64,000 nt of DNA, from the sequence record LC739534.1; one strand, written 5' to 3'. The DNA comes from Escherichia phage phiWec181. Both the position numbers and the translations under genes were made by a program. The notes under the pieces were generated by a model. The model was not told the origin of the DNA, did not search any database, and saw only the letters and a list, made by a program, of their open reading frames with translations. Positions 5,382-42,905 of the stretch are shown piece by piece; positions within the stretch are counted from its first letter, which is position 1, and the number at the start of each line of letters is the position of its first letter.

Positions 5382-6067
5382 CTACAATTATCGCAACCAA
5401 AAACAAGATCCTTAGCGACGGTAAAGTAACTTTCGGTGGTCGTGTAGATTCAACCAATTTCAAGAAAGTACGTAAGATTGGGGATTATCTCGTAGGTGGC
5501 GCAGGGCGTTTGACTTCGGTATTAGCTTTCTTCCAGTGGTTCGAACAGAACCTGCAATGTGAAGCGGCGCGTGAGGCAGTGCCTGGGTTGATGATCAGTT
5601 CTAACCCTGATCGTGAAGATGAAGAGTTTATTGCTCTCGTTGTTCACCCAGACGGACGTATTTTCCTGCATGAAGGTAATGATCCTACTCGTGCATACCC
5701 AATCGACGAAGAATACTACGCAGTAGGTAGTGGTTCCGATTTCGCGCTCGCAGCACTGGACGGCGGTGCTTCTCCAGAAGCTGCTATGGAGGTTGCCAAG
5801 AAGCGTGACGCATACTCCGGTGGCGAAACCTTCGTTGAAGAATTAGATGAGATCATTGAACTGACTGACGAAGATCTCGAAAACTTCACCAAACAAGAAC
5901 TGATCAACCTGCTCAAGTTTGGTGATCCTTCTGGTGAAGAAACTCCTCGTGACGTGGCAGGTGACGAGACGGTAGAAGAAGAGGTTGCTGTAGAAAAAGA
6001 CTTGACTTCTAAACCGGAAAATATTAATCTCGTAAACGTAGCGGATTTCGACAATCCCGCTGCTTAA
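5378..6067 (+). CDS. HslV-like N-terminal-nucleophile peptidase with acidic C-terminal extension
   Basis: Starts MTTII (Thr after Met), KVRKI and AVGSGSDFALAAL resemble HslV MTTIV/KVRRL/AIGSGG; ~50 extra acidic residues at C-terminus. Confidence 0.6.
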   Translation: MTTIIATKNKILSDGKVTFGGRVDSTNFKKVRKIGDYLVGGAGRLTSVLAFFQWFEQNLQCEAAREAVPGLMISSNPDREDEEFIALVVHPDGRIFLHEGNDPTRAYPIDEEYYAVGSGSDFALAALDGGASPEAAMEVAKKRDAYSGGETFVEELDEIIELTDEDLENFTKQELINLLKFGDPSGEETPRDVAGDETVEEEVAVEKDLTSKPENINLVNVADFDNPAA

Positions 6068-10290: not shown

Positions 10291-10804
10291 GTTAAATCGT
10301 GCAAACGTAGGTAATCGTTTTAACCTTAGCCGTATAAACGAGGACGTAGATGTTACAGCAGATATTGAAAAAATCATGCAGGGTATTGTCCATCACGGTT
10401 TGCGTTTTGCCAGGGATTTGGTAATCTTCCGTTATGACGGAGAAGATGATCGTTCAAAGAATGATGGGATTATCTTCGTAGATAAAGATTTAACCCAAGC
10501 AGATATTGAACAGATCAACCGTTATTTTATTGGTGTAGGGGATCTTCAAGACACGCAGCTTGCACGTATGGCAGAAATTCTGGCGAATAAATTGTTGCAA
10601 GATATCGGAAAAGTTCTTGACAAAAATCCAAAACATGTTATAGTGACTATCCACAAAATGAGTTTTATTAAGTATCTTAACAAACCTGGTAAACTGGGTT
10701 ATGGATGGATACGCACAAGTGGACCACAAACCACTCTCGAAACCGAGATGTGCTATACAATTGAAGAAGTAAAACGTGAGGAGGAAGAGAATGGCGGAAT
10801 TTAA
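10280..10804 (+). CDS. hypothetical protein (~174 aa), GTG start
   Basis: In frame with ORF-track 10040..10804; GTG at 10280 preceded by AAGGGGG and placed just before the upstream stop; longer version would overlap upstream gene. Confidence 0.4.
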   Translation: MAIKLNRANVGNRFNLSRINEDVDVTADIEKIMQGIVHHGLRFARDLVIFRYDGEDDRSKNDGIIFVDKDLTQADIEQINRYFIGVGDLQDTQLARMAEILANKLLQDIGKVLDKNPKHVIVTIHKMSFIKYLNKPGKLGYGWIRTSGPQTTLETEMCYTIEEVKREEEENGGI

Positions 10805-11081
10805 TGAAGTGAAAAGTTACGAAAGCAATTTCGTAAGCAATTGGGAAGCATGGGATGAGATGGGTGTTGGTGAACTCTATTTCTACAATGTAACCCTTCG
10901 TCCAGAATATCAACATCTCATTCCAGAAGGCACTGTGCAGATCGGTATGTTCATGTCTTCTCAAGACGGTGTTGTGCAGTTTGAGTTTTACTCTGACACA
11001 GAACAGAACGAATTCACTTATCGTGCATTCAATATCGTATTAGCTTTAGGAGAGGAGAAATTTTATGACGACGAAGTATAA
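10791..11081 (+). CDS. hypothetical protein (96 aa)
   Basis: SD GAGGAGGAAGAGA upstream of ATG 10791. Confidence 0.45.
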   Translation: MAEFNEVKSYESNFVSNWEAWDEMGVGELYFYNVTLRPEYQHLIPEGTVQIGMFMSSQDGVVQFEFYSDTEQNEFTYRAFNIVLALGEEKFYDDEV

Positions 11082-16871: not shown

Positions 16872-17102
16872 CTATTTGTGAAGTGCTCTCTCGTACAACT
16901 CGATAATCAACTCGTCTTCGGCAGTAATACGGGCCATTTGATCTGTCTTCAGGATTGCTGGTTGGTAATGATGCATTTCACTGCTCAAGATACACTCCCA
17001 CTCATCTTCCCCTACTCTCTCACCTACGTGAATCTTCACAGGATACCAGAAAGGATTGTCCACCAGGAATGCCATACAACCTTCTTCGATTTTGCTCAAC
17101 AT
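16872..17102 (-). CDS. hypothetical protein (76 aa)
   Basis: SD AAGGAGA upstream of ATG. Confidence 0.5.
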   Translation of the reverse strand: MLSKIEEGCMAFLVDNPFWYPVKIHVGERVGEDEWECILSSEMHHYQPAILKTDQMARITAEDELIIELYERALHK

Positions 17103-17123
17103 AGTAATCTCCTTTGTTCAGAT

Positions 17124-17148
17124 ATGAAAAAACCCGCCGAAGCGGGTT
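17124..17148 (-). terminator. rho-independent terminator
   Basis: AACCCGC-TTCG-GCGGGTT hairpin followed by TTTTTT on minus strand. Confidence 0.6.
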
Positions 17149-17192
17149 CATGTGCTGCGGTAGGATCAGTATCCTACAACACGAATTGTTTG

Positions 17193-17477
17193 TCAACGTT
17201 TGGAGTAGAAAAACTCCTCATATTCTGATCGTGTGACTATTGCTGGGCGACCTTTAGTGCCGAAGAAGTTTGCGCTTGGGCCTTGTGCCATACCTTTATT
17301 GAACAAGCAGTAATCCCCACGCATATAAATCCCAGAGAATGTTTCAACAACATCGTATTTGCCAACGCTGGAGAACTTAATTTCTCCATCTGCATCTCGA
17401 ACTGCGATCACAGCTTGTTCAGGCCATTCTTCGTTGAGAGCTTTAAGACCGTTGTAAACTTCTTGTACGAGTTCCAT
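17193..17477 (-). CDS. hypothetical protein (94 aa)
   Basis: SD AAGGAGG upstream. Confidence 0.5.
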   Translation of the reverse strand: MELVQEVYNGLKALNEEWPEQAVIAVRDADGEIKFSSVGKYDVVETFSGIYMRGDYCLFNKGMAQGPSANFFGTKGRPAIVTRSEYEEFFYSKR

Positions 17478-17486
17478 ATTACCTCC

Positions 17487-17660
17487 TTAAAGTACGATTT
17501 TTTCTTCGTCTGGTTTGTCATAATTTGGAGAGTAGACATGTGAAGGGTTGAAACCCTTGAAGCTACCACGTCCTTTACGAGGACAGTTGAAAGTACGAGC
17601 CTGATGATCACCGAAAGACTTACCACAATGCACACATTTGAAGTTGGTAACTTTATTCAT
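17487..17660 (-). CDS. small zinc-ribbon-like protein (57 aa)
   Basis: SD AAAGGAGAAG upstream of ATG 17660; CVHCG...CPRKG Cys pairs; ORF-track start 17690 lacks SD. Confidence 0.45.
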   Translation of the reverse strand: MNKVTNFKCVHCGKSFGDHQARTFNCPRKGRGSFKGFNPSHVYSPNYDKPDEEKIVL

Positions 17661-17715
17661 GTTCTTCTCCTTTAGGTTAATAGGCTGCACCTATTAAGAT
17701 GCAGCTTTTGATAGA

Positions 17716-17817
17716 TTACTTAGATGAGTCCAGAATATCTTTTACTTTGGCGATGATAACATCTTGATACTTATGGATGTGATATCCTACTACTAAACCT
17801 ACGATAAATGCAATCAT
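17716..17817 (-). CDS. small hydrophobic peptide (33 aa)
   Basis: MIAFIVGLVVGYHIHKYQ...; SD GGAGAAA upstream; TAATG overlap with upstream gene; not in ORF track. Confidence 0.3.
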   Translation of the reverse strand: MIAFIVGLVVGYHIHKYQDVIIAKVKDILDSSK

Positions 17818-18416
17818 TATTTTCTCCTATTTTGCTCGAATGTAGCTTGTGTCGGTATGTCAAACCAGTGGAAGTAACCTTTTTGTTGGGGTGCGATGCT
17901 GGTGCCAGTTGCCACAGCCAACACATCCACACTGATACCTATCTGATCATCTTCTACCGTATAATCCGAGGACCATAATTTAACAGTCAACGGTGTCTTT
18001 CCGACGAGGAAGTGAAGTCCTGCGTTTCCCCAGAGATTCACTTCAATCGCCTCGTCTTGAGATACATCTTGCTCTACTTCCTGTAGTTTGTCAAACACTT
18101 TCTGCACATCTTTTGGGTTAAGACGGATACTGTGCAGATAGTCAAACATGTTCACAAAATCTTGTGCTCGTTTTGTGTTTTTGGATACAGGATGAAGACA
18201 GTGTGGCACTAACGGCGACACACGAATATACCCTCCATCATCGTACCAACGCACAATAAACACGTCTCGACTTGGCTGACGATCTTTTGCTAAGATCGTA
18301 ACTTCTTGACCCTCTTCAATAGATGGGTAGTCTGGATCATACGCTGATGCACCATAGACCAAAGCTACGTGTCCAACATCCAAAGGTGTTTTTCCGTCCC
18401 AATAATTTGTTTCCAT
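17817..18416 (-). CDS. hypothetical protein (199 aa)
   Basis: SD AGGAGGGG upstream. Confidence 0.55.
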   Translation of the reverse strand: METNYWDGKTPLDVGHVALVYGASAYDPDYPSIEEGQEVTILAKDRQPSRDVFIVRWYDDGGYIRVSPLVPHCLHPVSKNTKRAQDFVNMFDYLHSIRLNPKDVQKVFDKLQEVEQDVSQDEAIEVNLWGNAGLHFLVGKTPLTVKLWSSDYTVEDDQIGISVDVLAVATGTSIAPQQKGYFHWFDIPTQATFEQNRRK

Positions 18417-18425
18417 TTTCCCCTC

Positions 18426-18689
18426 CTAAATAAGATCTGTGAAGTAGTGAATAACTTCAATATTATGGAAAAGCGTTTTACGCTCTTTTGTGTATTCTGT
18501 TGTCGTGACAGTTACCTTCGCCACCCCAAAATCTTTCATAGGGAACGTGGGTGCCTCTTTCAGGATATTATGTACTGTTTGGATGGCTTCAAATTCTGTC
18601 TCCCAGTAACTGAAGTAACCTTCGTCATCCGTGACGAGATTCTTGCCTTCCAAGTTCACGAAACAATAAAACTCTCGCGGTGTTGTCAT
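18426..18689 (-). CDS. hypothetical protein (87 aa)
   Basis: SD GAAGGTGG upstream; ATGA overlap with upstream small ORF. Confidence 0.5.
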   Translation of the reverse strand: MTTPREFYCFVNLEGKNLVTDDEGYFSYWETEFEAIQTVHNILKEAPTFPMKDFGVAKVTVTTTEYTKERKTLFHNIEVIHYFTDLI

Positions 18690-18844
18690 TCCACCTTCTC
18701 CAAAGCTTTCTTGAAGAATGTAGCATGTAACAGATGGCCCTCTGTATCAAACCATGTCACTTTACAGGAGTCCCCGTAGTCCTCTGTGACGGTCATGATA
18801 ACAGCTTCCCCACGTAAGGTTACAACATCGCCTACTGTAATCAT
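18686..18844 (-). CDS. small protein (52 aa)
   Basis: SD CCGGAGGA upstream; ATGA overlaps at both ends; not in ORF track. Confidence 0.4.
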   Translation of the reverse strand: MITVGDVVTLRGEAVIMTVTEDYGDSCKVTWFDTEGHLLHATFFKKALEKVE

Positions 18845-19287
18845 AAATCCTCCGGTGTACCAGCACGTAAAGCAGCTAAAGGTTCGGCTACAGCTTCCAG
18901 GGCGGCTTCAATTTGATCTTCAATCACATCACGAACCATTGCAATACGCTCATCAATATGCACAACGAAAGCATCGCTATAAGCACCAACTAACGTATTG
19001 TAAAATGTTTCTTGTGCGCTTAACGCGCCGCTAAGAATGAAATTACGTTGATCTTCAGGTAGTTGTTGGTGCTCTTCATATTTGGCAAACGTTTCACGGT
19101 TGATTTCCAACAGAGTCCCCATCATAAGGTCAAACTGCAAATCTTTGTCCGAGGGATTTCCCATTACAATGGTATTGTAAATGTTCAGCAAGCTGGTGCT
19201 AACACGAGCATTGTTTTCTACACCTTCCATCTGACGGAAAATAGTTAACACATCAATAGTTTCTTCAATCTTTTCGTTTTGGTTCAT
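18841..19287 (-). CDS. hypothetical protein (148 aa)
   Basis: SD AGAGGAGAA upstream. Confidence 0.55.
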   Translation of the reverse strand: MNQNEKIEETIDVLTIFRQMEGVENNARVSTSLLNIYNTIVMGNPSDKDLQFDLMMGTLLEINRETFAKYEEHQQLPEDQRNFILSGALSAQETFYNTLVGAYSDAFVVHIDERIAMVRDVIEDQIEAALEAVAEPLAALRAGTPEDL

Positions 19288-19459
19288 ATACGTTCTCCTC
19301 TATTATTGGAAGATATCCTGTAGTTTTACAGGGATTGCACTCATAAAGCTGGCCTACATCAACCATAACGTAGCCTAAACCTCCACAATATGGACACTCC
19401 ATAGGGGTACAAGGTACAGGTGTTGTTACGGTTACATCCACAACACGGGCAATTCTCAT
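19265..19459 (-). CDS. small Cys-rich protein (64 aa), putative zinc-binding
   Basis: CPYCGG...CNPC Cys pairs; SD AGGAGA upstream of ATG 19459. Confidence 0.45.
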   Translation of the reverse strand: MRIARVVDVTVTTPVPCTPMECPYCGGLGYVMVDVGQLYECNPCKTTGYLPIIEENVYEPKRKD

Positions 19460-19683
19460 TCCCATTCTCCTATAAGCTGGGGATTCAAGGCGAATTGTGA
19501 CATACGTTCAGTGGGAGAGTATAAGTACGGAGGTGTAATTTGCTCCAGCACCTTAGCTGCACGTACTTCATCTTCCACATCAATATGGAAACCACGTTCC
19601 ATAGTTAATACGCCATGATCATTAAGAAGGAATAGAGATTCTACTCCATCTACCTTATCAATTGCAACATAAAGTTTAGTCAT
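19456..19683 (-). CDS. small protein, paralog family H
   Basis: SD GGAGAT upstream of ATG 19683; C-terminus FALNPQLIGEWE matches next gene. Confidence 0.45.
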   Translation of the reverse strand: MTKLYVAIDKVDGVESLFLLNDHGVLTMERGFHIDVEDEVRAAKVLEQITPPYLYSPTERMSQFALNPQLIGEWE

Positions 19684-19693
19684 ATTATCTCCA

Positions 19694-19909
19694 TTACCAT
19701 TCGGCAATCAGTTGAGGTTTGACAGCAAAAGCTTGAAAGGTTGTAATATCATAAAGAAAGACATTAGTCGCCTCTTTCAGCTTAGTTGTCATGCCAGCCT
19801 TAGTTTCTCCGTTCCACGGGAAGATAGCAACACCTTGCTCTCCAACTAACCACCAGTGGTAATTGCCGTCACGAAGATCTTTTGCTTTATAAAGATAATT
19901 AGTAATCAT
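19694..19909 (-). CDS. small protein, paralog family H
   Basis: C-terminus FAVKPQLIAEW; start set at ATG 19909 (SD GGGAGA) rather than ORF-track 19999. Confidence 0.4.
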   Translation of the reverse strand: MITNYLYKAKDLRDGNYHWWLVGEQGVAIFPWNGETKAGMTTKLKEATNVFLYDITTFQAFAVKPQLIAEW

Positions 19910-20072
19910 TGCCACGTTTCTCCCATCTTTGCATCGCCTGTAACCAGCCCTCGGCTCTTTCCCTGGTTTCGAAGTAGACAGGAATACCCGTCCCTGCAAA
20001 TGTGACCCACCAAGTGAAGATCCACCAACCTGTTTTTATGCGATATCCTGTTTCATATTCGACCACTTTCAT
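19899..20072 (-). CDS. small Trp-rich protein (57 aa)
   Basis: MKVVEYETGYRIKTGWWIFTWW...; SD AAAGGTGA upstream; explains the N-terminal part of track ORF 19694..19999 in another frame. Confidence 0.4.
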   Translation of the reverse strand: MKVVEYETGYRIKTGWWIFTWWVTFAGTGIPVYFETRERAEGWLQAMQRWEKRGNDY

Positions 20073-20094
20073 GAGTCACCTTTAAAATCGTCTC

Positions 20095-20124
20095 ACTATA
20101 TCATTTACTATGTGTGTCTGTCAA
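20095..20124 (-). promoter_or_regulatory. sigma70-type promoter
   Basis: Minus strand TTGACA, 18-nt spacer, TATAGT; A-tract upstream. Confidence 0.4.
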
Positions 20125-20262
20125 GTTTTTCTTAGGGAAGAAGAGATCACAATAATGAATGTAGAAAAGTTCCACCAAAACCTCATCCTTGTACGACAAA
20201 CACTGCTCATCCTATTATTTTACATTAAAGCTTGGATAACAACCATCAGACAAATCTTAGTA

Positions 20263-20427
20263 TCATCTTATGGCTACAAGATAGAAACATAGAACACATC
20301 CAACCACACTTACTAAGAAACTGACATAAACAACAAACCTGTTATCGTCCACAATAGCCACAGCTAATGCGGCAGATGTTATCAGGAAAAGAACCATCAA
20401 CAGAATATCCCTGTTTACTGCATCCAT
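20263..20427 (-). CDS. small membrane protein (54 aa)
   Basis: Hydrophobic MDAVNRDILLMVLFLITSAALAVAIV...; strong SD AGGAGGTG upstream; not in ORF track. Confidence 0.45.
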   Translation of the reverse strand: MDAVNRDILLMVLFLITSAALAVAIVDDNRFVVYVSFLVSVVGCVLCFYLVAIR

Positions 20428-20556
20428 AGACACCTCCTCTTGTTAGTTACAGAGAGTATAATACCGGAACGTTACGATTACAACTACGAAGAACGGGTGA
20501 TTTTTGATTGATAGGTAGGACTTATCTGAAAGGAATAATTGATAGGGAACGCTGTA

Positions 20557-20585
20557 TTGACTTTTGCGAAAAAACATGCTACCCT
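20557..20585 (+). promoter_or_regulatory. promoter-like element, extended -10 type (TTGACT N17 TGcTACCCT), copy 1
   Basis: Nearly identical element recurs at 61274..61303; on + strand inside a minus-gene block, followed by homologous structured sequence. Confidence 0.35.
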
Positions 20586-20714
20586 AAACATATGTTTACG
20601 AGCGATAGCGAGTAGTGATTTCTATAGTATTATTGCATGTTACTCACGATAGGGAGTAAGCAATGTTAGTGAGGTAGACAGACTATGATCAACCATCTAC
20701 CTACTAACTATCTA

Positions 20715-20915
20715 TTACTCAGAGAAGGTACATTCGAGTACAGTCCAGACTAATATTACAGTCCAAGATGCTAACAGTATCCTGAAGATAGTCCACCAAC
20801 TAAACACATCTACCGTAATCCAGTGTCCAGCTACCAGTGATCCTGCTAACCAACCTCCTACAACAGTGATAACCCAAAGAATAAAACCTATCAAAGAAAA
20901 CGTAGCAAGTTTCAT
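20715..20915 (-). CDS. small membrane protein (66 aa)
   Basis: Two hydrophobic segments rich in Trp; SD AGAGGAGAAG upstream. Confidence 0.55.
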   Translation of the reverse strand: MKLATFSLIGFILWVITVVGGWLAGSLVAGHWITVDVFSWWTIFRILLASWTVILVWTVLECTFSE

Positions 20916-21196
20916 TAGACTTCTCCTCTATAAAGTTTATCTTCTCTTCTAACTTCAATCTTACACTCTTTGTCTACCACAATCAAGACTGAACATGAGT
21001 AATATCCTTCTGCAACAGTCTCGATCTGTTCTTCCAGATCCTTCGTCAATTCCTCTCCCATGAGATAGAAGGCAAACTTCGTGCAATGTAATAACTCTTC
21101 CTTGAAGTTAACCATCTTGTAGATGTTCATCCCAGTCTTATGTTCATCTACTGTCCAACCACTTGATCGAAGTCTGACTGCTGCGTTATGTCTCAT
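20915..21196 (-). CDS. hypothetical protein (93 aa)
   Basis: ATG overlaps stop of upstream small ORF (ATGA coupling). Confidence 0.45.
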   Translation of the reverse strand: MRHNAAVRLRSSGWTVDEHKTGMNIYKMVNFKEELLHCTKFAFYLMGEELTKDLEEQIETVAEGYYSCSVLIVVDKECKIEVRREDKLYRGEV

Positions 21197-21336
21197 CGTC
21201 CGTTACCATTCAATTGATCACGTAGCTTTTCTGCATCTCGTTTCTGTGGGAACGTGGCAACAGAGACATTGAATTCATTAACAACAGAAAAGGACTTGTC
21301 CAGGTTTTCACGGATAGTAAAAGGTTTCTTGCTCAT
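21193..21336 (-). CDS. small protein (47 aa)
   Basis: MSKKPFTIRENLDKSF...; SD GGAGGGAGA upstream; ATGA overlaps at both ends; not in ORF track. Confidence 0.4.
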   Translation of the reverse strand: MSKKPFTIRENLDKSFSVVNEFNVSVATFPQKRDAEKLRDQLNGNGR

Positions 21337-21686
21337 AATCTCCCTCCATCTTTAAGACGATTTTTAACCCAGCGTAGACGATCTGGATCTGTGTGTTGTG
21401 AAGCGTTTTCCGAATCCAGTAAATAAGCCTTTCTTCCGAACGGATAGGTTTCACATAACCCTGCTTCAATAAACTGATTATACATCTCTTTCATAGTGTT
21501 TTCGATTAAATACCAGTTACCTTCTGGAAGGTCTAAATCATACAACCAATACTCAAGATTACCACACAACCCTACAGAAGAGCTAAACACGTCTTCCATA
21601 ACAAGGCCCGTCTCGTCTCCATTTTCAGCCCAAGATAACCAAGCCTGATAAAAATCTAAAAGTAATTTACTTGATGCAATCTTCAT
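21333..21686 (-). CDS. paralog family A member
   Basis: Family pattern L..FY..WL.W...GLC...PF(N/G)...RL.WVK.R; SD AGGAGAG upstream of ATG 21686. Confidence 0.6.
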   Translation of the reverse strand: MKIASSKLLLDFYQAWLSWAENGDETGLVMEDVFSSSVGLCGNLEYWLYDLDLPEGNWYLIENTMKEMYNQFIEAGLCETYPFGRKAYLLDSENASQHTDPDRLRWVKNRLKDGGRL

Positions 21687-21688
21687 GC

Positions 21689-21874
21689 TCACTCTCCTAC
21701 ACTTTCTGGTGTGCCATCCCAAGCACCTAAGACTTCTTTCAGGTGTGCACGGGGTTCTTTAAAATACTCCTCCATTTTATCCAGAAGATCGTCTGTGTTT
21801 GGGCTGTATCCCAACATCCCACGTAAAACTCTTTCTTCTTGCAAGACCAACCATCTATGATAGCTTCGAATCAT
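21689..21874 (-). CDS. small protein (61 aa)
   Basis: SD GGAGG upstream of ATG 21874; ORF-track start 22006 lacks SD. Confidence 0.4.
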   Translation of the reverse strand: MIRSYHRWLVLQEERVLRGMLGYSPNTDDLLDKMEEYFKEPRAHLKEVLGAWDGTPESVGE

Positions 21875-22289
21875 AATATTCCTCCAAGAGTTTCTCAATT
21901 CTCTGAACGGTCTTAGTATCCCAATAAACCTTATTAAAGTCAAGTGTTCCATGTGCATTTCTTTTTGTTTCGAAGTAATAACCACCTTCCCGCTCCAAGC
22001 GATCACGGATCACTTCTATAAGATGATCCTTACCTATCTGCGTCAAACAATAATCATACTCTCCTTTTAAGAGATCTATAGAAGGTTGACGGTTATCTCC
22101 AACCTGGGAAATCTTCCAATTTACCAATGATCCTTGTATACCAACGTCTGTCTGCTTCACAGCGAAGCCTTTGGCACCCCAGCTACCCAACGTTACCACT
22201 AACAGGGCTTCTCCCGTCAGAGAGCGATTAAGCGTGTCGCTTCGGGGTTCACTTAAAGTTGAAAACCATTTAAGAATCTTTTTAAACAT
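21855..22289 (-). CDS. hypothetical protein (144 aa)
   Basis: SD GAGAGGAG upstream of ATG 22289. Confidence 0.5.
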   Translation of the reverse strand: MFKKILKWFSTLSEPRSDTLNRSLTGEALLVVTLGSWGAKGFAVKQTDVGIQGSLVNWKISQVGDNRQPSIDLLKGEYDYCLTQIGKDHLIEVIRDRLEREGGYYFETKRNAHGTLDFNKVYWDTKTVQRIEKLLEEYYDSKLS

Positions 22290-22309
22290 TATATGCTCCT
22301 CTCGTTCAA

Positions 22310-22344
22310 CATGCACAAACAATAACACCCTCCAAAGAGGGTGT
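22310..22344 (-). terminator. putative rho-independent terminator
   Basis: ACACCCTC-TTTG-GAGGGTGT hairpin followed by T-rich run on minus strand. Confidence 0.45.
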
Positions 22345-22350
22345 CAATGA

Positions 22351-22560
22351 TTAATCGATCACAAAAAACGTAGCGTTCAAACGTCTGAATGTCGCAGGGC
22401 TATATCCATGATCACACTCTTCAATGAACTGATCTGTAGTCTGATCGTAACTATAATACTGATCATTTTGGAAATGGAAGGACGCACAGAACAAATCATT
22501 TCCTACAGTCCACACTGCCACAAAATTCTTACCGAACGGATAACCTTCAGCTACTTTCAT
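22351..22560 (-). CDS. hypothetical protein (69 aa)
   Basis: SD AGAGGAGGGAGA upstream of ATG 22560. Confidence 0.45.
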   Translation of the reverse strand: MKVAEGYPFGKNFVAVWTVGNDLFCASFHFQNDQYYSYDQTTDQFIEECDHGYSPATFRRLNATFFVID

Positions 22561-37162: not shown

Positions 37163-37437
37163 TTCATTTATCATCGCTTTTCCCTATCAATTATTCTATA
37201 TATACCTGTTATTTTTGACACCCCCTTTGGTCAAATATTAATCGGCAAAATATCTGGGGGTACTCTATAAAATGATGCCCCCTGTTCCTGCAATTTATCG
37301 AGGAGAATATCATTCGACTATCATCGGCAAAGAGACAGAAAAGCCTTTGGTAGCAAGGATTTATGGCGAGTACGTCAGGACTGCTTAACGCGAATTTTTC
37401 GGCCCCTCCACTTCTGCGAGCCGGAATCCTCAAATAT

Positions 37438-37470
37438 CAATGAGAATAATTATCATTATCATTCGTATTC
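37438..37470. promoter_or_regulatory. Fur-box-like palindromic operator motif
   Basis: AATGAGAATAATTATCATTATCATT: 16/19 identity to Fur consensus GATAATGATAATCATTATC; related copies at 52026..52140. Confidence 0.35.
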
Positions 37471-37859
37471 AATAACTTAGGCGATCTTTTCCCCTGCTAT
37501 AAGGTCGGGCCTAACTTAACCATCACTTTTCAAACAATCCTTTATCAATCAACTACTTAACAACCTAAACATATGATTACTACGGTGTAAAGGTGCCGCC
37601 CATAACAGACTACCTATAAAATAGATGAGAATGATTATTATTCAGACAATTCTTACAACAAATCGACCAACAAATCAAGAATTTTCTTATTTTTATTCAC
37701 GTTTAAGAGAACGTGCTCAACATTCCGCTACGCGTAACGGTTCGCCCCCAAAAGATTAGCCTTTGCTTTCCTGTATATTTATACACTATGTGCAAGGTGT
37801 CGCTACACGCTCGCCTTGCCCCGCATAATCCTTCACTGTGCTAATGATTTCATAGTGCA

Positions 37860-38060
37860 ACAATAACACTTATTATTATATTACGCTTAATTATTCTTAC
37901 ATACAATGCTAATAATAAGCCAGCGTAATTAGTGTAAGCGTAATACGCTTGCAATAATTGCAAGCTACATAATCACAAGAAATAACTATCACCGATAGTT
38001 ATGATTGTGGGGGTGTAGTTGGCTTATTATTAGCTCGCTACGTGTCCGGCGTAGCGTGCT
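37860..38060. repeat. cluster of four distinct perfect palindromes in non-coding DNA
   Basis: AAGCGTA-a-TACGCTT, GCTTGCAAT-a-ATTGCAAGC, ATAACTATC-acc-GATAGTTAT, CGCTACG-N7-CGTAGCG within ~120 bp. Confidence 0.45.
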
Positions 38061-38099
38061 AATGATGAGGCTTGGAATGATTCATTTTGCAATTATTAC

Positions 38100-38480
38100 A
38101 GTCTTCACTATTTTGATAATAGTTGTTCTTTTAATGGTTTCATTTGTTATCGTTAGTTAGTTGGTTGTTTTGTAGTGTTATCGTTATCTTGCTTAGTATT
38201 CATCACGGTTTGATTGTTTGTCGTTATCAATCATCTTTCTATTATTCCTTTGATTATGATTAGTTTGCTTATTGTTTTAGGTTGTTGGTTGGTTAGTTGT
38301 TGCGAACTATTATCAACATTATAGTTATGCACTTATATTGCATAGATACGCAAGGGTAGATGATAATGGTTATCATTGCACTGGAAAGGAAGAAAACAGC
38401 CTTTTTCGGTTGTTTGTTGTTGGTTGTTGATCTATTTTAACCGCTCTAAATAGCTCTCTAACAGCCTGTTTACCTGGGGT
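38100..38480. repeat. G+T-rich low-complexity tract with reiterated GTTATC / GGTTGG motifs (iteron-like)
   Basis: Multiple GTTATC(G/A) and GTTGTTGG repeats; no ORF with SD on either strand. Confidence 0.4.
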
Positions 38481-38583
38481 GTATGGTTATTCGTTTGCTG
38501 GTTGATTAGCTCGATACCGCGATTTATTCAGTTTTGTTCTGTGTCGGTTTTTCATAGGCGGAATCTATCAACATTGTTCGGGC

Positions 38584-38612
38584 AAAAAGAAAGGGCGCTT
38601 GGTGCGCCCCTT
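38584..38612 (-). terminator. rho-independent terminator
   Basis: AAGGGGCGC-ACCAA-GCGCCCTT hairpin followed by TTTCTTTTT on minus strand, just after CDS 38626..39045. Confidence 0.55.
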
Positions 38613-38625
38613 GTTTTGTTGTCGA

Positions 38626-39045
38626 TTATAACGCTTCATAGATTGAGTAGATCCGGTTCGCCAGGTCATTACGAAAGCGGAATTTTTCATCACGTTTAAT
38701 CATCAGATCCTTAAAACCGCATTCTTTCAAGGCTTCATTAACTTTACTGCGGCATACTTTCATATTGTCCTGCGCGTCACCAATAAACTTATTGCTATGA
38801 TGCATTGCTTTGATCTCTTCCTCCAGGACCAGGGCAACTACACGGATCGGATCAAGCTGATACGCGGTAACATCCATGCGGCATTGTAAACGGCTTTTAA
38901 CATCGTTTACCGGATACACTGCAACCTCTTCCCCGTCAACGTTCACGATAACCAGTTTGCCATCAATTTCGAAGCCTTTAGCGGCGCTACCGTGACAAAA
39001 AGCGTTATCGAAGGAGTAAGCCGGATTATTTGATTTAATGTTCAT
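38626..39045 (-). CDS. hypothetical protein (139 aa)
   Basis: SD AAAGGAC upstream; promoter TTGACA inside palindrome CCCCTGTCAATAGGGG upstream. Confidence 0.55.
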   Translation of the reverse strand: MNIKSNNPAYSFDNAFCHGSAAKGFEIDGKLVIVNVDGEEVAVYPVNDVKSRLQCRMDVTAYQLDPIRVVALVLEEEIKAMHHSNKFIGDAQDNMKVCRSKVNEALKECGFKDLMIKRDEKFRFRNDLANRIYSIYEAL

Positions 39046-39156
39046 GTTGTTGTCCTTTGTTTGGTTGCGTTGTTTGCTGCCAGTGAGTTAAATATAATAT
39101 AACGCCGATCCCCTGTCAATAGGGGATAGCGTATTATTTACATTTCTTTACGTTAA

Positions 39157-39175
39157 AGGGCGCTTAGTGCGCCCT
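39157..39175 (-). promoter_or_regulatory. intergenic GC hairpin (weak terminator or mRNA-stabilising element)
   Basis: AGGGCGC-ACTAA-GCGCCCT 10 nt after stop of CDS 39185..39553; only a short T-run follows. Confidence 0.35.
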
Positions 39176-39184
39176 TGTATAATC

Positions 39185-39553
39185 TTACTTTGTGCGGTTG
39201 TGAACGTTATCGCGTTCAACCATCAAGGCAAGGCGGATCAGTTGATCAGTTGTATCGCGTAAGCTGTCAGGCCATGTCTTATAGTTCCAGCTATCCAGGT
39301 TTGATTGTATATAGGTTTCAATCGCTTGATCCATATTATCAAACAAGTTTTCCTCCAAGCTCTCGGCTGTTTCACACTGGAAAGCATCAGCGACACTATT
39401 AATCAATAAGCAAGCCAGTAAATCAGCGTTGCGCCAATTTTTACGGATAGTTTCATCTGTCAGATAACCAACGAGATTAACCTTTGCGCCAGTGGTGGAC
39501 GTTGCGATCACTTCTTGCGCTTTTTCAACTGCTTTAATTGCTGATTTGCTCAT
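39185..39553 (-). CDS. hypothetical protein (122 aa)
   Basis: SD AAAGAGGAAAAG upstream. Confidence 0.55.
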   Translation of the reverse strand: MSKSAIKAVEKAQEVIATSTTGAKVNLVGYLTDETIRKNWRNADLLACLLINSVADAFQCETAESLEENLFDNMDQAIETYIQSNLDSWNYKTWPDSLRDTTDQLIRLALMVERDNVHNRTK

Positions 39554-39631
39554 CTTCTTTTCCTCTTTGTGGGCTTGCTGTATTGCTTGCCCTACGCAAT
39601 AACTATAAGTTAACAGGGTGTATAAAGCAAG

Positions 39632-39865
39632 CTATTTTTTATAAAATTTTTCTGCTGTGATATTCTTCCCTGTAGGCTTAACCGCTTGCAAAATCTTATC
39701 ATGTGCCGAACGTCCAAAGGAATAAGATCCGTAAACGGTAAACCAATAATCGCCATTGGGTTGCACGGTTACGGCGGCGTATGGTGTACCTCTCTCATTA
39801 TCACCGATAAAGTGTGAAACATTGCCGTTAACGTTCGATTTAGTGCTTTTAATTTGTCCGATCAT
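39632..39865 (-). CDS. hypothetical protein (77 aa)
   Basis: SD TAGGAAT upstream. Confidence 0.5.
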   Translation of the reverse strand: MIGQIKSTKSNVNGNVSHFIGDNERGTPYAAVTVQPNGDYWFTVYGSYSFGRSAHDKILQAVKPTGKNITAEKFYKK

Positions 39866-39885
39866 GGTGTTATTCCTATATTAGA

Positions 39886-39942
39886 CGGGAAACATTCCCG
39901 CCCTACGTGATAAATAATAATATAAGCGTGATCCGGTGTCAA
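39886..39942 (-). promoter_or_regulatory. promoter + 5'-proximal GC stem-loop cassette (PeSL-like), hairpin class IV
   Basis: Minus strand TTGACA, 17 nt, TATTAT, 10 nt, GGGAATGTTTCCC hairpin, then CDS 39632..39865. Confidence 0.5.
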
Positions 39943-40077
39943 TAGGTAGAATTGTAAAGATTTGATAGTTTGTCTCTTTGTTGTTTTGTTGTTTGATAGA
40001 TGTTAGCTATCAATATATAGCGGGGTCGTCCGGTGATTACCTCCCCCGTTGCCAGTGCCGCCCGTTCAATAAGCATA

Positions 40078-40107
40078 ACAAAAAACAGGACAAAAGCAAG
40101 CCCTGTT
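40078..40107 (-). terminator. rho-independent terminator
   Basis: ACAGGGCTTGCTTTTGTCCTGT hairpin followed by TTTTTTGTT on minus strand after CDS 40117..40320. Confidence 0.55.
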
Positions 40108-40116
40108 TTGTAAAGA

Positions 40117-40320
40117 TTAGATGATCTGCATATCCTCCACGATAATTTCTAATTTCCAAACAAGATGATCTAAGCTCCCTGATAAAAATGATTCCGATAC
40201 ATAACCGCCATCGGACACCGTAGCAAGGATCTCGCCATTTGCTTGCTCTTTGATTTGAACATCCAGGCGGTTAGCCTTTGCTTTGTTCAGGACGGCGATC
40301 AGGCGGTTAGCTGTAGTCAT
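40117..40320 (-). CDS. hypothetical protein (67 aa)
   Basis: SD GAAAGGAAAA upstream; loosely similar to CDS 41063..41299. Confidence 0.5.
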   Translation of the reverse strand: MTTANRLIAVLNKAKANRLDVQIKEQANGEILATVSDGGYVSESFLSGSLDHLVWKLEIIVEDMQII

Positions 40321-40340
40321 GGTGTTTTCCTTTCAGTTGT

Positions 40341-40398
40341 GAGCGGCACCATTGCCGCCCTACGTGATACATCTTACACTATCAGATACATTGTGCAA
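40341..40398 (-). promoter_or_regulatory. PeSL-like cassette, hairpin class I
   Basis: TTGCAC, ~16 nt, TAAGAT, 10 nt, GGCGGCA-ATGG-TGCCGCT hairpin ~20 nt before ATG of CDS 40117..40320. Confidence 0.5.
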
Positions 40399-40404
40399 GC
40401 TATT

Positions 40405-40596
40405 TTAGATCTCGTCACCTATATAATCAGATCTGTTCTTCTCTGTCATACGTTTTAATAATTCTTGCATATCGCTTATAGCTTGCAATGTGTCTTCTTC
40501 CAGGCTTGAATCCACATAGTCAGGATCATTCTTTACCTTGCTATGGTTATGATAGCGCAACGCTGCTAATACCTTTCTAACTTGTTCCACGTTCAT
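40405..40596 (-). CDS. hypothetical protein (63 aa)
   Basis: ORF; weak SD AAGGG. Confidence 0.45.
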   Translation of the reverse strand: MNVEQVRKVLAALRYHNHSKVKNDPDYVDSSLEEDTLQAISDMQELLKRMTEKNRSDYIGDEI

Positions 40597-40605
40597 GATG
40601 TACCC

Positions 40606-40725
40606 TTAAAATAGTGTGCCGATGGAAGATAGCAGGTCACTAATAACCAGGACCAGATCTACTATCACATATCTAATCAGGAAGGGGATTAGCGCCAGCG
40701 TCGCTACTATGATCCCCATTGTCAT
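40606..40725 (-). CDS. small hydrophobic peptide (39 aa)
   Basis: MTMGIIVATLALIPFLIRYVIVDLVLV...; SD GAGAAAGG upstream; not in ORF track. Confidence 0.4.
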   Translation of the reverse strand: MTMGIIVATLALIPFLIRYVIVDLVLVISDLLSSIGTLF

Positions 40726-40736
40726 GATTACCTTTC

Positions 40737-41027
40737 TCATTGTTGGCGGTTTACATAAGCTTTACCGTTTACGGTCATCGGTATGGCCTCAAGGTCTGGA
40801 TCTTCCTTAAGGTCGCGTGCAAGCTCACCGCACCGGACACCCTCGAATCCGTGGTATTCTGTTTCCCCGTTCTTAAAAGTTTTAGCGGCAAGGCATAGGC
40901 GATAATTAACACCGATCCGGTTTACTGCGTTGATATCGGTTAACGTGATCGATTCCGGCAAATCGTTAGCCATTACAGGCGCGTTAATACCAACAACCAG
41001 GGCAACTACTGCGATCATCTTTTTCAT
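40737..41027 (-). CDS. small secreted protein (96 aa) with signal peptide
   Basis: MKKMIAVVALVVGINAPVMA signal-like N-terminus; SD GGAAGAGGA upstream. Confidence 0.5.
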   Translation of the reverse strand: MKKMIAVVALVVGINAPVMANDLPESITLTDINAVNRIGVNYRLCLAAKTFKNGETEYHGFEGVRCGELARDLKEDPDLEAIPMTVNGKAYVNRQQ

Positions 41028-41062
41028 GTGTCTATCCTCTTCCTATTGCGTTTAATGGGGCG

Positions 41063-41299
41063 TTATTGATTGATGTTATGATGAAAGTTATTTTCTTCAA
41101 CGGCTTTTAAAATAAAGGCTGTTACCGCTTTCGTGTCTACTTGTTCGAACGTATCAGAATAAGCCCAATAATAATCATCCCCTACTTTAGGCGGGTAAAC
41201 CTGGACAAGGAGATCGCCACCTGGTTGATCTATAAGCTCAACATGTAAGCCGGATGATTCAGCGGTTTTAACGGCGTTTAATACTGTTGCAATACTCAT
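41063..41299 (-). CDS. hypothetical protein (78 aa)
   Basis: SD GAAAGGAAAAG upstream. Confidence 0.5.
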   Translation of the reverse strand: MSIATVLNAVKTAESSGLHVELIDQPGGDLLVQVYPPKVGDDYYWAYSDTFEQVDTKAVTAFILKAVEENNFHHNINQ

Positions 41300-41318
41300 A
41301 ATCTTTTCCTTTCTAATG

Positions 41319-41334
41319 TGGGGCGTTGCCGCCC
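41319..41334 (-). promoter_or_regulatory. intergenic GC hairpin without adjacent promoter
   Basis: GGGGCG-GCAA-CGCCCC between CDS 41344..41643 and 41063..41299; no -35/-10 next to it. Confidence 0.3.
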
Positions 41335-41343
41335 CTTTGTTGA

Positions 41344-41643
41344 TTAGATCGCTGTTTCCAGTAGTTCGGCTAACGTCTTACCGCCTGATAGTTGGTCTAA
41401 CGTTTGCTCTTCTGACAAGAAATTAGCGGATATTAAACCGACCTGGTTCCCTTTGTGCCAGTTAGCCTGGCGGGTGATTCCATCCTTTAAGGATTTTACC
41501 GCCATTGTGCAACCATCACCAAATGATTCATTTTTATGGTCCATCACTTCATAAGCGCCCAGCTTGCTGCTGTTAGGCACCATTAACGCGAATACATCAC
41601 CAACAACCAGTTTTTCTACGGTAACAATAGCGATAGTTTCCAT
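41344..41643 (-). CDS. hypothetical protein (99 aa)
   Basis: SD TGAGGAAAAC upstream. Confidence 0.5.
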   Translation of the reverse strand: METIAIVTVEKLVVGDVFALMVPNSSKLGAYEVMDHKNESFGDGCTMAVKSLKDGITRQANWHKGNQVGLISANFLSEEQTLDQLSGGKTLAELLETAI

Positions 41644-41660
41644 TTTGTTTTCCTCATTAT

Positions 41661-41718
41661 CGGCGGCACCATTGCCGCCCTACGTGGTAAATATTATCAC
41701 ACTGGCGATCTGTGTCAA
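41661..41718 (-). promoter_or_regulatory. PeSL-like cassette, hairpin class I
   Basis: TTGACA, 16 nt, TAATAT, 10 nt, GGCGGCA-ATGG-TGCCGCC hairpin, then CDS 41344..41643. Confidence 0.5.
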
Positions 41719-41724
41719 TACTTT

Positions 41725-42111
41725 TTATTCAATATAAATCAAATTATCTTCACCAATGTAAGCCGACACGTCCGGCATGAATTTAGCGGCATTTGTTAGG
41801 CGGTTGGCTGTGTTAGTAGTGTATATTTCAGGGCGATCCCAAAATCCTACGCCGTGACCGTTACGGGTAAAATGTAAATCATTCCCGATCTGGTTGGCTG
41901 TAGCGCCGTCGCTCATTGCTTCCGCAATAGCGGCAACGTTAGCATTACAAAATGATGTAACATCGTCCGCGATACGGTCCAGGGCTTGAGAAGAAAAATC
42001 ATAATCGTCTAAGTTATCAATAAAATCACCTTCGTGATCCCTGGCTGATTCAGCAAAAATAAAAACGTCTTTATAACCGTTGATGATTTCGTTAATGATT
42101 TCTGTTTTCAT
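41725..42111 (-). CDS. hypothetical acidic protein (128 aa)
   Basis: SD AAAGAGAGA upstream. Confidence 0.55.
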   Translation of the reverse strand: MKTEIINEIINGYKDVFIFAESARDHEGDFIDNLDDYDFSSQALDRIADDVTSFCNANVAAIAEAMSDGATANQIGNDLHFTRNGHGVGFWDRPEIYTTNTANRLTNAAKFMPDVSAYIGEDNLIYIE

Positions 42112-42125
42112 GTTGTGTCTCTCTT

Positions 42126-42230
42126 TTAACCGATACCGTGGGAAGATAGGATCATATTAGCCATAGTTGCAACCACTCCAACCGATAACGCCAGGCCAAC
42201 TACTGCAACCGTGAAAATTTTCTCTAACAT
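42126..42230 (-). CDS. small hydrophobic peptide (34 aa)
   Basis: MLEKIFTVAVVGLALSVGVVATMANMILSSHGIG; SD GAGGGTAG upstream; C-terminus resembles 40606..40725 peptide; not in ORF track. Confidence 0.4.
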   Translation of the reverse strand: MLEKIFTVAVVGLALSVGVVATMANMILSSHGIG

Positions 42231-42248
42231 GATGCTACCCTCATTAAT

Positions 42249-42310
42249 GGGCGTTGCCTTATTGCCCCGCCCTACGTAATACAGTTTACCCGATTTATAA
42301 TTGTTGTCAA
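42249..42310 (-). promoter_or_regulatory. PeSL-like cassette, hairpin class V
   Basis: TTGACA, 16 nt, TAAACT, 10 nt, GC hairpin GGGCG...CGCCC, then small ORF 42126..42230. Confidence 0.45.
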
Positions 42311-42311
42311 A

Positions 42312-42593
42312 TTATTTTTTCAAGCTTGACCACTCAAAACACGGCGGGATCTCGTTAAAACTTGCACCCTGTAAAGCACATAATTTTTTAGCAATAGCCG
42401 CCGTAACCTGGCGTTGTACGCGCGGATCTGCTACTGATTGGAGAAAGTAGGCGGCTTTATATGTGATCATGCTTTCGCCTGTTTCCTTGTTAACGTGGTG
42501 CACTATTTTAGCCTTATCATCTTTAACCAGGGTGTAACCGGATTCGATGGCCTTGATTGCAACGTCCAATGATATTTTCATGATTTGTCTCAT
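42312..42593 (-). CDS. hypothetical protein (93 aa)
   Basis: ATG only 7 nt after hairpin and without SD; possible short-leader translation. Confidence 0.45.
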   Translation of the reverse strand: MRQIMKISLDVAIKAIESGYTLVKDDKAKIVHHVNKETGESMITYKAAYFLQSVADPRVQRQVTAAIAKKLCALQGASFNEIPPCFEWSSLKK

Positions 42594-42599
42594 CTGATA

Positions 42600-42658
42600 A
42601 GCGGGGCGGTTGTCGCCCCTGTAAAATGAATACTACGCGCTTATTTTGCTGTTGTCAA
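42600..42658 (-). promoter_or_regulatory. PeSL-like cassette, hairpin class III
   Basis: TTGACA, 17 nt, TAGTAT, ~10 nt, GGGGCG-ACAAC-CGCCCC hairpin, then CDS 42312..42593. Confidence 0.5.
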
Positions 42659-42823
42659 CAACGGGCGAAAAAACTTTTTGATCTGGTTTGCTGTTAGGCG
42701 CATATCTGCTTTGAGCGTTGCCAGGCGATAAGCTTTACCCTTGATCAGTTTATGGTGTCCGGTGCCGTTGCCGATGATAACATCGATTTCACACAATACG
42801 CGGGAAGCATCAATCTTTTTCAT
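42641..42823 (-). CDS. hypothetical basic protein (60 aa)
   Basis: SD GAAAGGTAA upstream. Confidence 0.45.
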   Translation of the reverse strand: MKKIDASRVLCEIDVIIGNGTGHHKLIKGKAYRLATLKADMRLTANQIKKFFRPLLTTAK

Positions 42824-42843
42824 GTTGTTACCTTTCGTGTTAT

Positions 42844-42899
42844 GGGGCGCTTGTCGCCCCCTGTCTGATAAAGATAATCCCTTTCGGGATATCTGTCAA
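42844..42899 (-). promoter_or_regulatory. PeSL-like cassette, hairpin class III, with second hairpin in promoter spacer
   Basis: TTGACA, 17 nt (contains ATCCC-GAAA-GGGAT), TATCTT, 10 nt, GGGGCG-ACAAG-CGCCCC. Confidence 0.5.
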
Positions 42900-42905
42900 C
42901 TATTT

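Follow-up and report, generated by a model that had tools for sequence, protein, structure and literature searches.

A promoter that points into a long block of oppositely oriented genes, with no open reading frame (ORF) behind it, raises the question of what it transcribes. Such a promoter lies at 20.6 kb of a 64,000-nucleotide stretch of the genome of Escherichia phage phiWec181 (LC739534.1; this whole stretch is hereafter termed the window), on the + strand, amid 41 kb of small hypothetical genes that run leftward (window approximately 16.9–58.1 kb). A preliminary description had pointed out that the promoter recurs at 61.3 kb, followed at both loci by related blocks and a similar hairpin, and had proposed that the 20.6-kb copy specifies an antisense or small RNA, or is a relic of module shuffling. 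The present analysis found a promoter-leader cassette that is real, conserved and present in three copies per genome, designated A (20.6 kb), B (61.3 kb) and C (a third copy, outside the window). At a probability of roughly 0.55, copy A is interpreted as a sigma-70 extended -10 promoter that would drive a structured non-coding RNA of approximately 125 nt, the first hairpin of which (H1) is common to two mRNA leaders. This orphan RNA is a strong candidate for a new, previously undescribed phage non-coding RNA.

The promoter of copy A (P_A) comprises a -35 hexamer, TTGACT (20557–20562, + strand), and, after a 17-nt spacer, an extended -10 element, TGc-TACCCT (20577–20585), from which the sigma-70 spacing rule predicts a transcription start at an A located 5–7 nt past the -10 hexamer (20590–20592). 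In copy B (61274–61303, + strand), TTGACT (61274–61279) and TGc-TACCCT (61295–61303) are separated by 18 nt; both promoters had been placed correctly in the preliminary description. A promoter pattern with fixed spacing, for which 0.03 matches are expected, retrieves the 61.3-kb copy only, because the spacers of A and B differ by 1 nt, and among the matches to TGCTACCCT in the window, those at A and B are the only ones preceded by a -35 hexamer. The elements kept in all copies are the -35 hexamer (TTGAC, TTTAC or TTGAT across all lineages), the 17–18-nt spacer, the TG and the TACCCTA, the last of which is invariant across every Stephanstirmvirinae copy read. The n of TGn is C in most copies, G in the A copy of phage tuntematon, A in the C copy of phiWec and T in the C copy of tuntematon; such freedom at this position is the mark of a sigma-70 extended -10 promoter. 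At B, at C and in phage phi92, this promoter and H1 are found directly upstream of sense genes, and the fact that the same element fronts genes at B and C identifies the + strand as the functional one at A.

The block behind the promoters begins 13 nt past the -10 hexamer at both A and B, as the box CGAGCGATAGCGAG (20599–20612, + strand) and the box CGAGCGGGAGCGAG (61317–61330, + strand), respectively. The box pattern, CGAGCG-N0-4-AGCGAG, occurs exactly twice in the 64-kb window, against 0.00 occurrences expected from 100 shuffles, which bears out the relatedness of the two blocks; that the box is a hairpin had been overlooked. Its halves pair as C-G, G·A, A·G, G-C and C-G around a loop of 3 or 4 nt (GAA, GCA, GAUA or GGGA), and RNAfold predicts for most copies a stem, H1, with a 2x2 internal loop consisting of the two tandem G·A/A·G mismatches. 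H1 has the form UUA-CGAGC-[GAUA]-GCGAG-UAG at A (20596–20615, + strand; RNAfold and covariation) and GUGC-CGAGC-[GGGA]-GCGAG-GUAU at B (61313–61334, + strand; sequence, RNAfold and covariation). Ten box bases never vary among the copies, and A-type copies all have the same GAUA loop. The stem is lengthened by three covarying positions on each side: CG (six sequences) or AU (four) forms the first flanking pair, the third is paired in 12/12 sequences by four pair types, and the covariation score of the flanks is 0.359, compared with 0.169 in shuffles (0/500 reach 0.359) and at most 0.16 when the partners are slid.

When 17 copies are read on the + strand, the flanks of H1 form 34 Watson-Crick and 11 G·U pairs; read on the minus strand, each of the wobble pairs turns into an A·C mismatch. 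As read from these alignments, H1 is a structure of the + strand RNA or, formally, of the non-template DNA strand. A reading of the box as a double-stranded DNA operator was therefore rejected, on the grounds of the variable loop (3 or 4 nt), the variable distance between box and -10 hexamer (12–16 nt among copies) and the wobble pairing confined to the + strand. A hammerhead core, the helix II flanks of which the G·A pairs resemble by inspection, was likewise rejected, CUGA and A14 being absent. With a predicted start approximately 7 nt past the -10 hexamer, H1 would lie approximately 4 nt from the 5′-end of the RNA.

The statement that A and B resemble each other more than shuffled controls stood for this composite motif and did not stand for the element as a whole, the local alignment of which is marginal (51/1000); the significance therefore lies in the composite motif and not in overall identity. 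The similar hairpins, TTACTC...GAGTAAG at A and TTACCCTC...GAGGGTAG at B, both exist, but their supposed homology was not upheld: the downstream local alignment is matched by 297/1000 dinucleotide shuffles, and typical Phapecoctavirus lack the B hairpin in their B copy.

The third copy emerged from a phage record that extends beyond the window. Positions 19500–22500 of the window match two Escherichia phages of the Stephanstirmvirinae (Phapecoctavirus), phiWec179 and phiWec186, at 100% identity, and the offset between the window and phiWec179 shifts by 107 bp between 20 kb and 61 kb. The search for further copies suggested in the preliminary description was made over the remaining phiWec179 record, apart from a 74-base gap, and revealed copy C, for a total of three copies. 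Copy C is located on the minus strand at approximately 22.34–22.41 kb of that record, in a divergent intergenic region, and heads a leftward unit that holds a tRNA cluster; in the window itself, a tRNA/tmRNA scan found none. Approximately 200 nt past copy C and before the first gene, beyond a very A/T-rich stretch, there is a second promoter-like site, TTGACTTTTAGATCTTACATATGTTAGAGT (L006 22148–22176, minus strand), which together with copy C looks like a pair of tandem promoters heading the tRNA unit.

This arrangement recurs in other lineages. A pattern scan of IMG/VR identified three contigs of approximately 150 kb with exactly three copies each, and their ORF maps place A antisense in a minus-strand block, B sense in a plus-strand block and C at a divergent junction. 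The orphan antisense A copy was found in phages of the phiWec179 type and the tuntematon type, in Citrobacter phage Tr1, in Klebsiella phage phi1_175008 and its IMG/VR relative, in Justusliebigvirus (L023) and in one further lineage, which came from a metagenome scan that also added new B-type variants. A BLAST match of phi92 to A is actually a B-type copy, located 45 nt upstream of gp208. The pattern matches outside Stephanstirmvirinae (a marine family, L054, L086, L087 and L091) were rejected as noise, being at chance-level number and in unrelated contexts; the chance matches, roughly estimated by hand and not a tool output, were approximately 100 for the IMG/VR scan and approximately 5 for the metagenome scan. 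Two of the four metagenome lookalikes have at least three complementary flanking pairs. Flank complementarity of this sort is odd for matches set aside as noise. In one match so treated, L086 (sediment contig SL_8KL_010_SEDDRAFT_10000206, approximately 10770–10900), a TACCCTA is followed by the box, around which CCCTAAGG pairs with CCTTAGGG, and then by a degenerate second copy; in another, L054 (approximately 5840–5890), the box is in a hairpin with six extra pairs and a T-rich tail between convergent genes.

Copy B is, as had been described, the leader of the coding sequence (CDS) at 61473–62009 (+ strand), which stands behind a ribosome-binding site. The -35 hexamer of B follows the stop codon of the preceding gene after only 3 nt, and the first gene behind B varies, encoding 178 aa here and 65 aa in tuntematon and phAPEC8. 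A second hairpin of B, UUACCCUC..GAGGGUAG (61341–61366, + strand; from the fold), is lineage-specific and is absent from the B copies of tuntematon and phAPEC8. The distal part of the leader (61378–61457, + strand) is 90% identical across Phapecoctavirus and contains two TATCGTTAGAT repeats (61380 and 61423), each embedded in one of two similar hairpins; it is possibly a separate regulatory leader. A pairing of the CGAUAG loops in the A RNA with the CUAUCG repeats in the B leader is no more than an idea: it spans 7–10 bp, approximately one such match is expected by chance, and it is not retained in Justusliebigvirus.

At locus A, the element is located in a 287-bp gap (20428–20714) between two minus-strand genes; that it opposes the surrounding block with no conserved ORF behind it agrees with the preliminary description. 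Approximately 200 nt of this gap (20503–20701) are 82–84% identical in the Phapecoctavirus records among 131 matching phage records (the weaker Justusliebigvirus records among those 131 align to the sense B copy, not to A), and the sequence on either side of the A island yields no alignment in the matching records. The element retains 80–89% nucleotide identity across genera while its neighbours are replaced. The flanking synteny is present, the flanking proteins being 30–70% identical between the phiWec and tuntematon types, and the window phage has extra, lineage-specific genes inserted to the left of A. The convergent gene, which lies outside the element (20715–20915, minus strand; ORF), encodes a small membrane protein of 66 aa; its counterparts are membrane proteins of 66–69 aa in the phiWec and tuntematon types, and unrelated soluble proteins of 86–142 aa occupy this position in the Tr1, Klebsiella and Justusliebigvirus lineages.

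The non-coding room after P_A amounts to 85–136 nt in all lineages. No short ORF behind the promoter is conserved among the aligned A-type sequences, as judged by eye, and a coding reading was rejected because the short + strand ORFs that follow the promoter (e.g., ATGTTTACGAGCGATAGCGAGTAG) are not conserved in the Tr1, Klebsiella and Justusliebigvirus lineages. The local GC skew turns positive at 20450–20700, like that of the + strand genes of the phage. Several deposited genomes (e.g., OR584014 PsgM04F, MH160766 and PV659873) annotate a "hypothetical protein" across A, which in PsgM04F is a 47-aa minus-strand ORF over the element; these calls are probably spurious. One near-identical genome bears the label of a Pseudomonas phage in its database entry, and several bear that of a Campylobacter phage.

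Downstream of H1, the predicted A RNA contains an A/U-rich linker, UGAUUUCUAUAGUAUU (20616–20631, + strand; read from the sequence), and, by reading, strings resembling (A/G)AUU(U)CU-UAG come after H1 in the A, B and C copies found in other lineages. The linker is followed by a second hairpin, H2 (20632–20664, + strand; fold and covariation), in which AUUGC..GCAAU surrounds UUACUC..GAGUAA, and the counterpart of which in most other lineages is UUUCAUG-loop-CAUGAAA. Compensatory changes are present in H2 (pair 4-17 is UA in four cases, CG in one and GC in one, and pair 8-13 is GC or GU), and its covariation score is reached by 3/500 shuffles. A third hairpin, H3 (20665–20708, + strand; fold), consists of GUUAGUgAGGUAGA and UCUACCUACUAAC separated by a 17-nt loop, and its core, GGUAGA/UCUACC, is conserved in tuntematon-type phages; it is a probable common 3′ structure for the + strand RNA and the convergent minus-strand gene. 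A pyrimidine-rich tail, UAUCUAUUACUC (20709–20720, + strand), the putative 3′-end region, overlaps the convergent stop codon (20715–20717), and pyrimidine-rich tails are likewise found behind H3 in other lineages. Upstream of the promoter are two direct repeats of TTGATAGG (20508–20515 and 20539–20546, + strand), which are kept in tuntematon-type phages and partly in the Tr1, Klebsiella and Justusliebigvirus lineages and are possible regulator sites. With the loops of H1 (20604) and H2 (20648), these repeats place four GATAG on the + strand within 145 nt (20508–20652), where approximately 0.14 would be expected by a rough estimate of our own, not a tool result; this cluster is kept in tuntematon-type phages and partly in Tr1. 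The related string CGATAG occurs 18 times in the window and is not enriched genome-wide.

Taken together, these features suggest the following model. The cassette would be specific to Stephanstirmvirinae and would consist of a host sigma-70 promoter, predicted to be strong, of the form TTGACT-17/18-TGnTACCCTA, followed by H1 at the 5′-end of the transcript. Host RNA polymerase with sigma-70 would initiate at approximately 20592 on the + strand and produce an RNA with the order H1, A/U-rich linker, H2, H3 and pyrimidine tail, the 3′-end of which would be located at the stop codon of the convergent gene. Copies B and C would start mRNAs, and copy A, having no gene, would fire against the 41-kb leftward early block. 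Because A is conserved while its neighbours differ, the RNA is most likely autonomous and not an antisense regulator of one gene; it may act in trans, as a decoy or regulator, or by way of a factor that recognizes H1. Since the RNA probably ends at the convergent stop codon, little antisense overlap is predicted, a point missed in the preliminary description. The earlier suggestion of an antisense or small RNA thereby gains comparative support from the presence of A in at least five lineages, its conservation above that of the flanks and its covarying, strand-specific helices. The comparisons show the anatomy of the element, its copy number, its constant orientation, its conservation above that of the flanks and the strand-specific covariation of H1 and H2; from them we infer promoter firing, the RNA ends and any function of the A RNA.

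Several observations weigh against this model. As a -10 hexamer TACCCT is poor, and TACCCTA, with its CCC, is more strictly invariant than sigma-70 requires. No canonical intrinsic terminator was called at A; H3 with the UAUCUAUU behind it resembles a terminator, except that its loop measures 17 nt and its tail is only moderately U-rich, and the A RNA could therefore be a long antisense RNA, or terminated by Rho. At A, the minus strand equals or surpasses the + strand in folding energy (z = -2.75 versus -1.58), which is explained by H2 and H3 being Watson-Crick palindromes, so that the strand is assigned from the promoter, the G·A pairs and the asymmetry of the G·U pairs. The covariation of H2 comes from four independent lineages only. 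The proposed H1-reading factor is hypothetical, and the first genes downstream of B and C have no arginine-rich or other obvious RNA-binding signature.

As it is invariant across genera and common to two mRNA leaders, H1 is more than a generic 5′ stabilizer; it is probably read by a specific, putative phage or host factor, and is probably also a 5′-terminal stabilizing stem-loop. A bolder proposal, which we consider rather doubtful, is that H1 is the address tag of a small phage RNA regulon, a putative factor reading exactly three transcripts. If so, the gene-less A would be a purpose-built regulatory or decoy RNA that titrates or delivers the factor, or acts in trans through the linker and H2, the mRNA units of B and C would be coupled to a non-coding controller, and the RNA would represent a new small RNA family with a common 5′ module.

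The orientation of A, in the intergenic gap of a one-directional block, is also what would be expected of a convergent-transcription insulator, in which P_A collides with or terminates leftward transcription, H2 and H3 form a bidirectional barrier and the RNA product is irrelevant. The 12 distal genes (16872–20427) would then be transcribed on their own, from a leftward promoter placed back to back with P_A. H3 lies next to the stop codon of the leftward gene that precedes it, the position of A within the block is kept as its neighbours change, and a weak candidate leftward promoter for the gene at 20263–20427, TTGTAA-17-TATACT (20455–20483, minus strand; 9/12 consensus matches), lies 75 bp behind P_A, back to back with it; in tuntematon, a stronger TTGACA-18-TGtTACATT is seen by eye at the equivalent place. 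The insulator leaves the conserved, covarying transcribed part (H1, H2 and the linker) unexplained, and it lacks a canonical terminator. Moreover, the Tr1, Klebsiella and Justusliebigvirus lineages have only approximately 57–60 nt between the start codon of the left gene and the -35 hexamer, which leaves little room for a leftward promoter, so that read-through seems to be needed. We therefore regard an insulator as unlikely.

A promoter without a gene also recalls replication origins. Transcript R-loops serve as origins at ori(uvsY) and ori(34) of T4, and phiOL and phiOR of T7 are gene-less promoters; d(GCGNAGC) is the core of a very stable DNA mini-hairpin. By analogy, the three copies would be origins at which a transcript R-loop primes DNA synthesis and the hairpin holds the bubble open. 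Exact GCGAAGC or GCGCAGC is present in B- and C-type copies, the hairpin can form on the non-template (+) strand only, an A/T-rich stretch follows H1, and the copies are regularly spaced. C, A and B are positioned at 22.37, 63.01 and 103.62 kb of the phiWec179 record (spacing of 40.64 and 40.61 kb), and in tuntematon A lies roughly midway between C and B, at distances of 38.6 and 35.6 kb; this near-equal spacing may be a coincidence. On the other side, all A-type copies carry a 4-nt GATA loop instead of a GNA triloop, G·U is better tolerated in RNA than G·T in DNA, the covariation of H2 is not required for an origin, and the ORF-free 1.2-kb region at 37.4–38.6 kb is a more conventional candidate. 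The cumulative GC skew turns at the switches of gene orientation (approximately 16 kb and 58 kb) and not at A, but is uninformative on origins because it tracks gene orientation only. An origin function is accordingly given little credence. The mini-hairpin core also recalls N4-type promoters, where a single-subunit RNA polymerase of the phage uses a hairpin with a 3-nt loop formed by one DNA strand; the B- and C-type copies have such a core, and the A-type copies have the 4-nt loop.

Equally little weight is given to a leader for processive antitermination or modification of RNA polymerase, in which H1 would resemble boxB of lambda nut or the put sites of HK022 and A would produce a long antisense RNA across the early block, for instance to switch it off at a later stage of infection. 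As with nut and put, a small conserved hairpin with a GNA- or GNRA-type loop lies shortly downstream (5–10 nt past the start) of early promoters, and two of the three transcription units so headed are tens of kb long; the lack of a terminator behind copy A would fit as well. However, no boxA (CGCUCUUA-like) sequence is present in any of the leaders, the stem has tandem G·A pairs and an invariant sequence, and one copy heads no operon. The loops are GAA, GCA, GAUA and GGGA, no N-like arginine-rich motif was found in the first downstream proteins of B and C (first genes only examined), the first gene after B differs among lineages, and H2, H3 and the tail resemble a distinct 3′ module, one that is conserved in A-type copies only.

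The relic proposed in the preliminary description would be a non-functional cassette left inverted by recombination between copies. The copies do exchange parts: they swap spacer types, the spacers of tuntematon A and B being almost identical and copy B in the window having a spacer of the type otherwise found in copy C; their adjacent genes differ between lineages, including the gene after B, and there is the lineage-specific insertion to the left of A. A relic would hardly be expected to keep the same orphan orientation in at least five lineages of different genera and 80–89% identity while its neighbours were replaced within a flanking synteny that is still present, or to have invariant features of its own, the GAUA loop and H2, that B and C lack; we reject it as very improbable. 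Least likely is a minus-strand feature, i.e., an intercistronic leader, processing site or terminator of a leftward mRNA to which the + strand promoter resemblance is incidental, for although the minus strand folds at least as well and leftward transcription across the region is certain if there is read-through, B and C have the identical promoter and H1 in sense orientation, H1 on the minus strand would hold C·U/U·C mismatches in addition to the 11 lost wobbles, and no good minus-strand promoter covers the conserved core.

To relate the A RNA and its cassette to documented elements, databases and literature were searched. No Rfam family matches anywhere in the 64-kb window at the gathering score, and permissive thresholds yielded only chance-level matches (E above 1) at 20480–20760. 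Searches of the literature on the motif strings and on promoters or transcriptomes of Phapecoctavirus, Stephanstirmvirinae or phi92 found nothing relevant in the papers searched, and no description of the promoter-hairpin element was found in Rfam, those papers or genome annotations. In kind, the element is a variant of what is known, namely phage small or antisense RNAs and promoter-hairpin cassettes. The most similar elements on record are among the latter, namely the promoter-early stem-loop (PeSL) cassettes of T4-type phages. In these, a stem-loop placed ahead of the promoter terminates transcripts of the gene before it (Arbiol et al., 2010, PMC2839356; Comeau et al., 2014, PMC4122927). 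The present cassettes share with PeSLs their character as short, repeated and conserved intergenic units with a sigma-70-like promoter and a stem-loop amid small ORFan early genes, as well as signs of copy recombination and swapping of neighbouring genes. The strong sigma-70-like early promoter of PeSLs has a predicted counterpart here in a consensus match, TTGACT-17/18-TGnTACCCT. In contrast to the upstream terminator of PeSLs, H1 is located 12–16 nt downstream of the -10 hexamer, inside the transcript; it is an invariant G·A-paired hairpin and not a poly-G/poly-C stem; and there are three copies per genome, one of them gene-less, whereas PeSLs number dozens, each with a gene.

Among regulatory RNAs, the nearest analogue of an orphan promoter that faces an operon is that of lambda OOP, a 77-nt cis-antisense RNA (PMC5869508). 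Like it and P22 sar, the A RNA would be a short non-coding RNA with its own promoter, directed against the surrounding operon and located between genes. OOP shares tens of nucleotides with the 3′-end of cII, its only target, and ends at a canonical intrinsic terminator. Unlike this substantial overlap, that predicted for A is a few nucleotides (H3 ends at 20708 and the stop codon is at 20715–20717), the gene neighbouring A is not conserved, and there is no canonical terminator. The lambda LPR1/PreS RNA is a trans-acting phage small RNA (bioRxiv 10.1101/2024.10.31.621285) and demonstrates that phages do encode RNAs of this sort. The A RNA resembles it in being small and structured, with an A/U-rich single-stranded linker beside its hairpins; it differs in that its phage is a virulent myovirus and its 5′ hairpin is common to two mRNA leaders. 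A type I toxin-antitoxin system was rejected, the small membrane neighbour not being conserved (an unrelated soluble protein replaces it in the Tr1, Klebsiella and Justusliebigvirus lineages). The ompA-type 5′ stem-loops of E. coli mRNAs block 5′-end-dependent decay and need no fixed sequence; H1, within approximately 4 nt of the predicted 5′-end, is similarly placed, but ten of its stem bases are invariant across genera.

Two further features of the window are recorded here. A second class of promoter-leader cassettes, with approximately 20 copies, was found on the minus strand at approximately 39,000–51,100, in which TTGACA-16/17-TA(A/T)nnT is followed approximately 5 nt on by CA(C/T)(G/A)TAGGG and a GC-rich hairpin. 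The -35 hexamers are located at 39942, 41718, 42310, 42658, 42899, 43172, 43882, 45253, 45731, 46179, 47480, 47794, 48212, 48926, 49265, 49845 and 51026, and the stems vary compensatorily (GGGCGGC/GCCGCC, GGGGCG/CGCCCC and GGGCGGGG/CCCCCC). There is one cassette per small ORFan gene, the hairpin lying downstream of the promoter and starting the transcripts; this class is closer than the H1 cassette to PeSLs in number and context, although its downstream hairpin is unlike that of a PeSL. The second feature is a region of approximately 1.2 kb in the middle of the leftward early block (approximately 37,434–38,625) that has no ORF of at least 75 aa and no CDS annotated in phiWec179. It shows an anomaly of GC/AT skew and several inverted repeats (e.g., 37908–37922 with 38020–38034, 15/15), has no Rfam match and is a candidate for a replication origin or a long non-coding RNA.

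Phages of the Stephanstirmvirinae (phAPEC8, phi92 and relatives) are widely isolated as therapeutic phages of E. coli and Klebsiella; almost all of their early genes are annotated as hypothetical, and no study of their transcriptional programme was found in the papers searched. The three-copy promoter class, with its invariant leader hairpin, provides a handle on the organization of early or middle transcription in this group. If H1 is a tag bound by a protein or by the polymerase, it would constitute a new and compact module for RNA recognition, with sheared G·A pairs in tandem; otherwise, the cassette is still an annotation that is missing from at least 131 deposited genomes.

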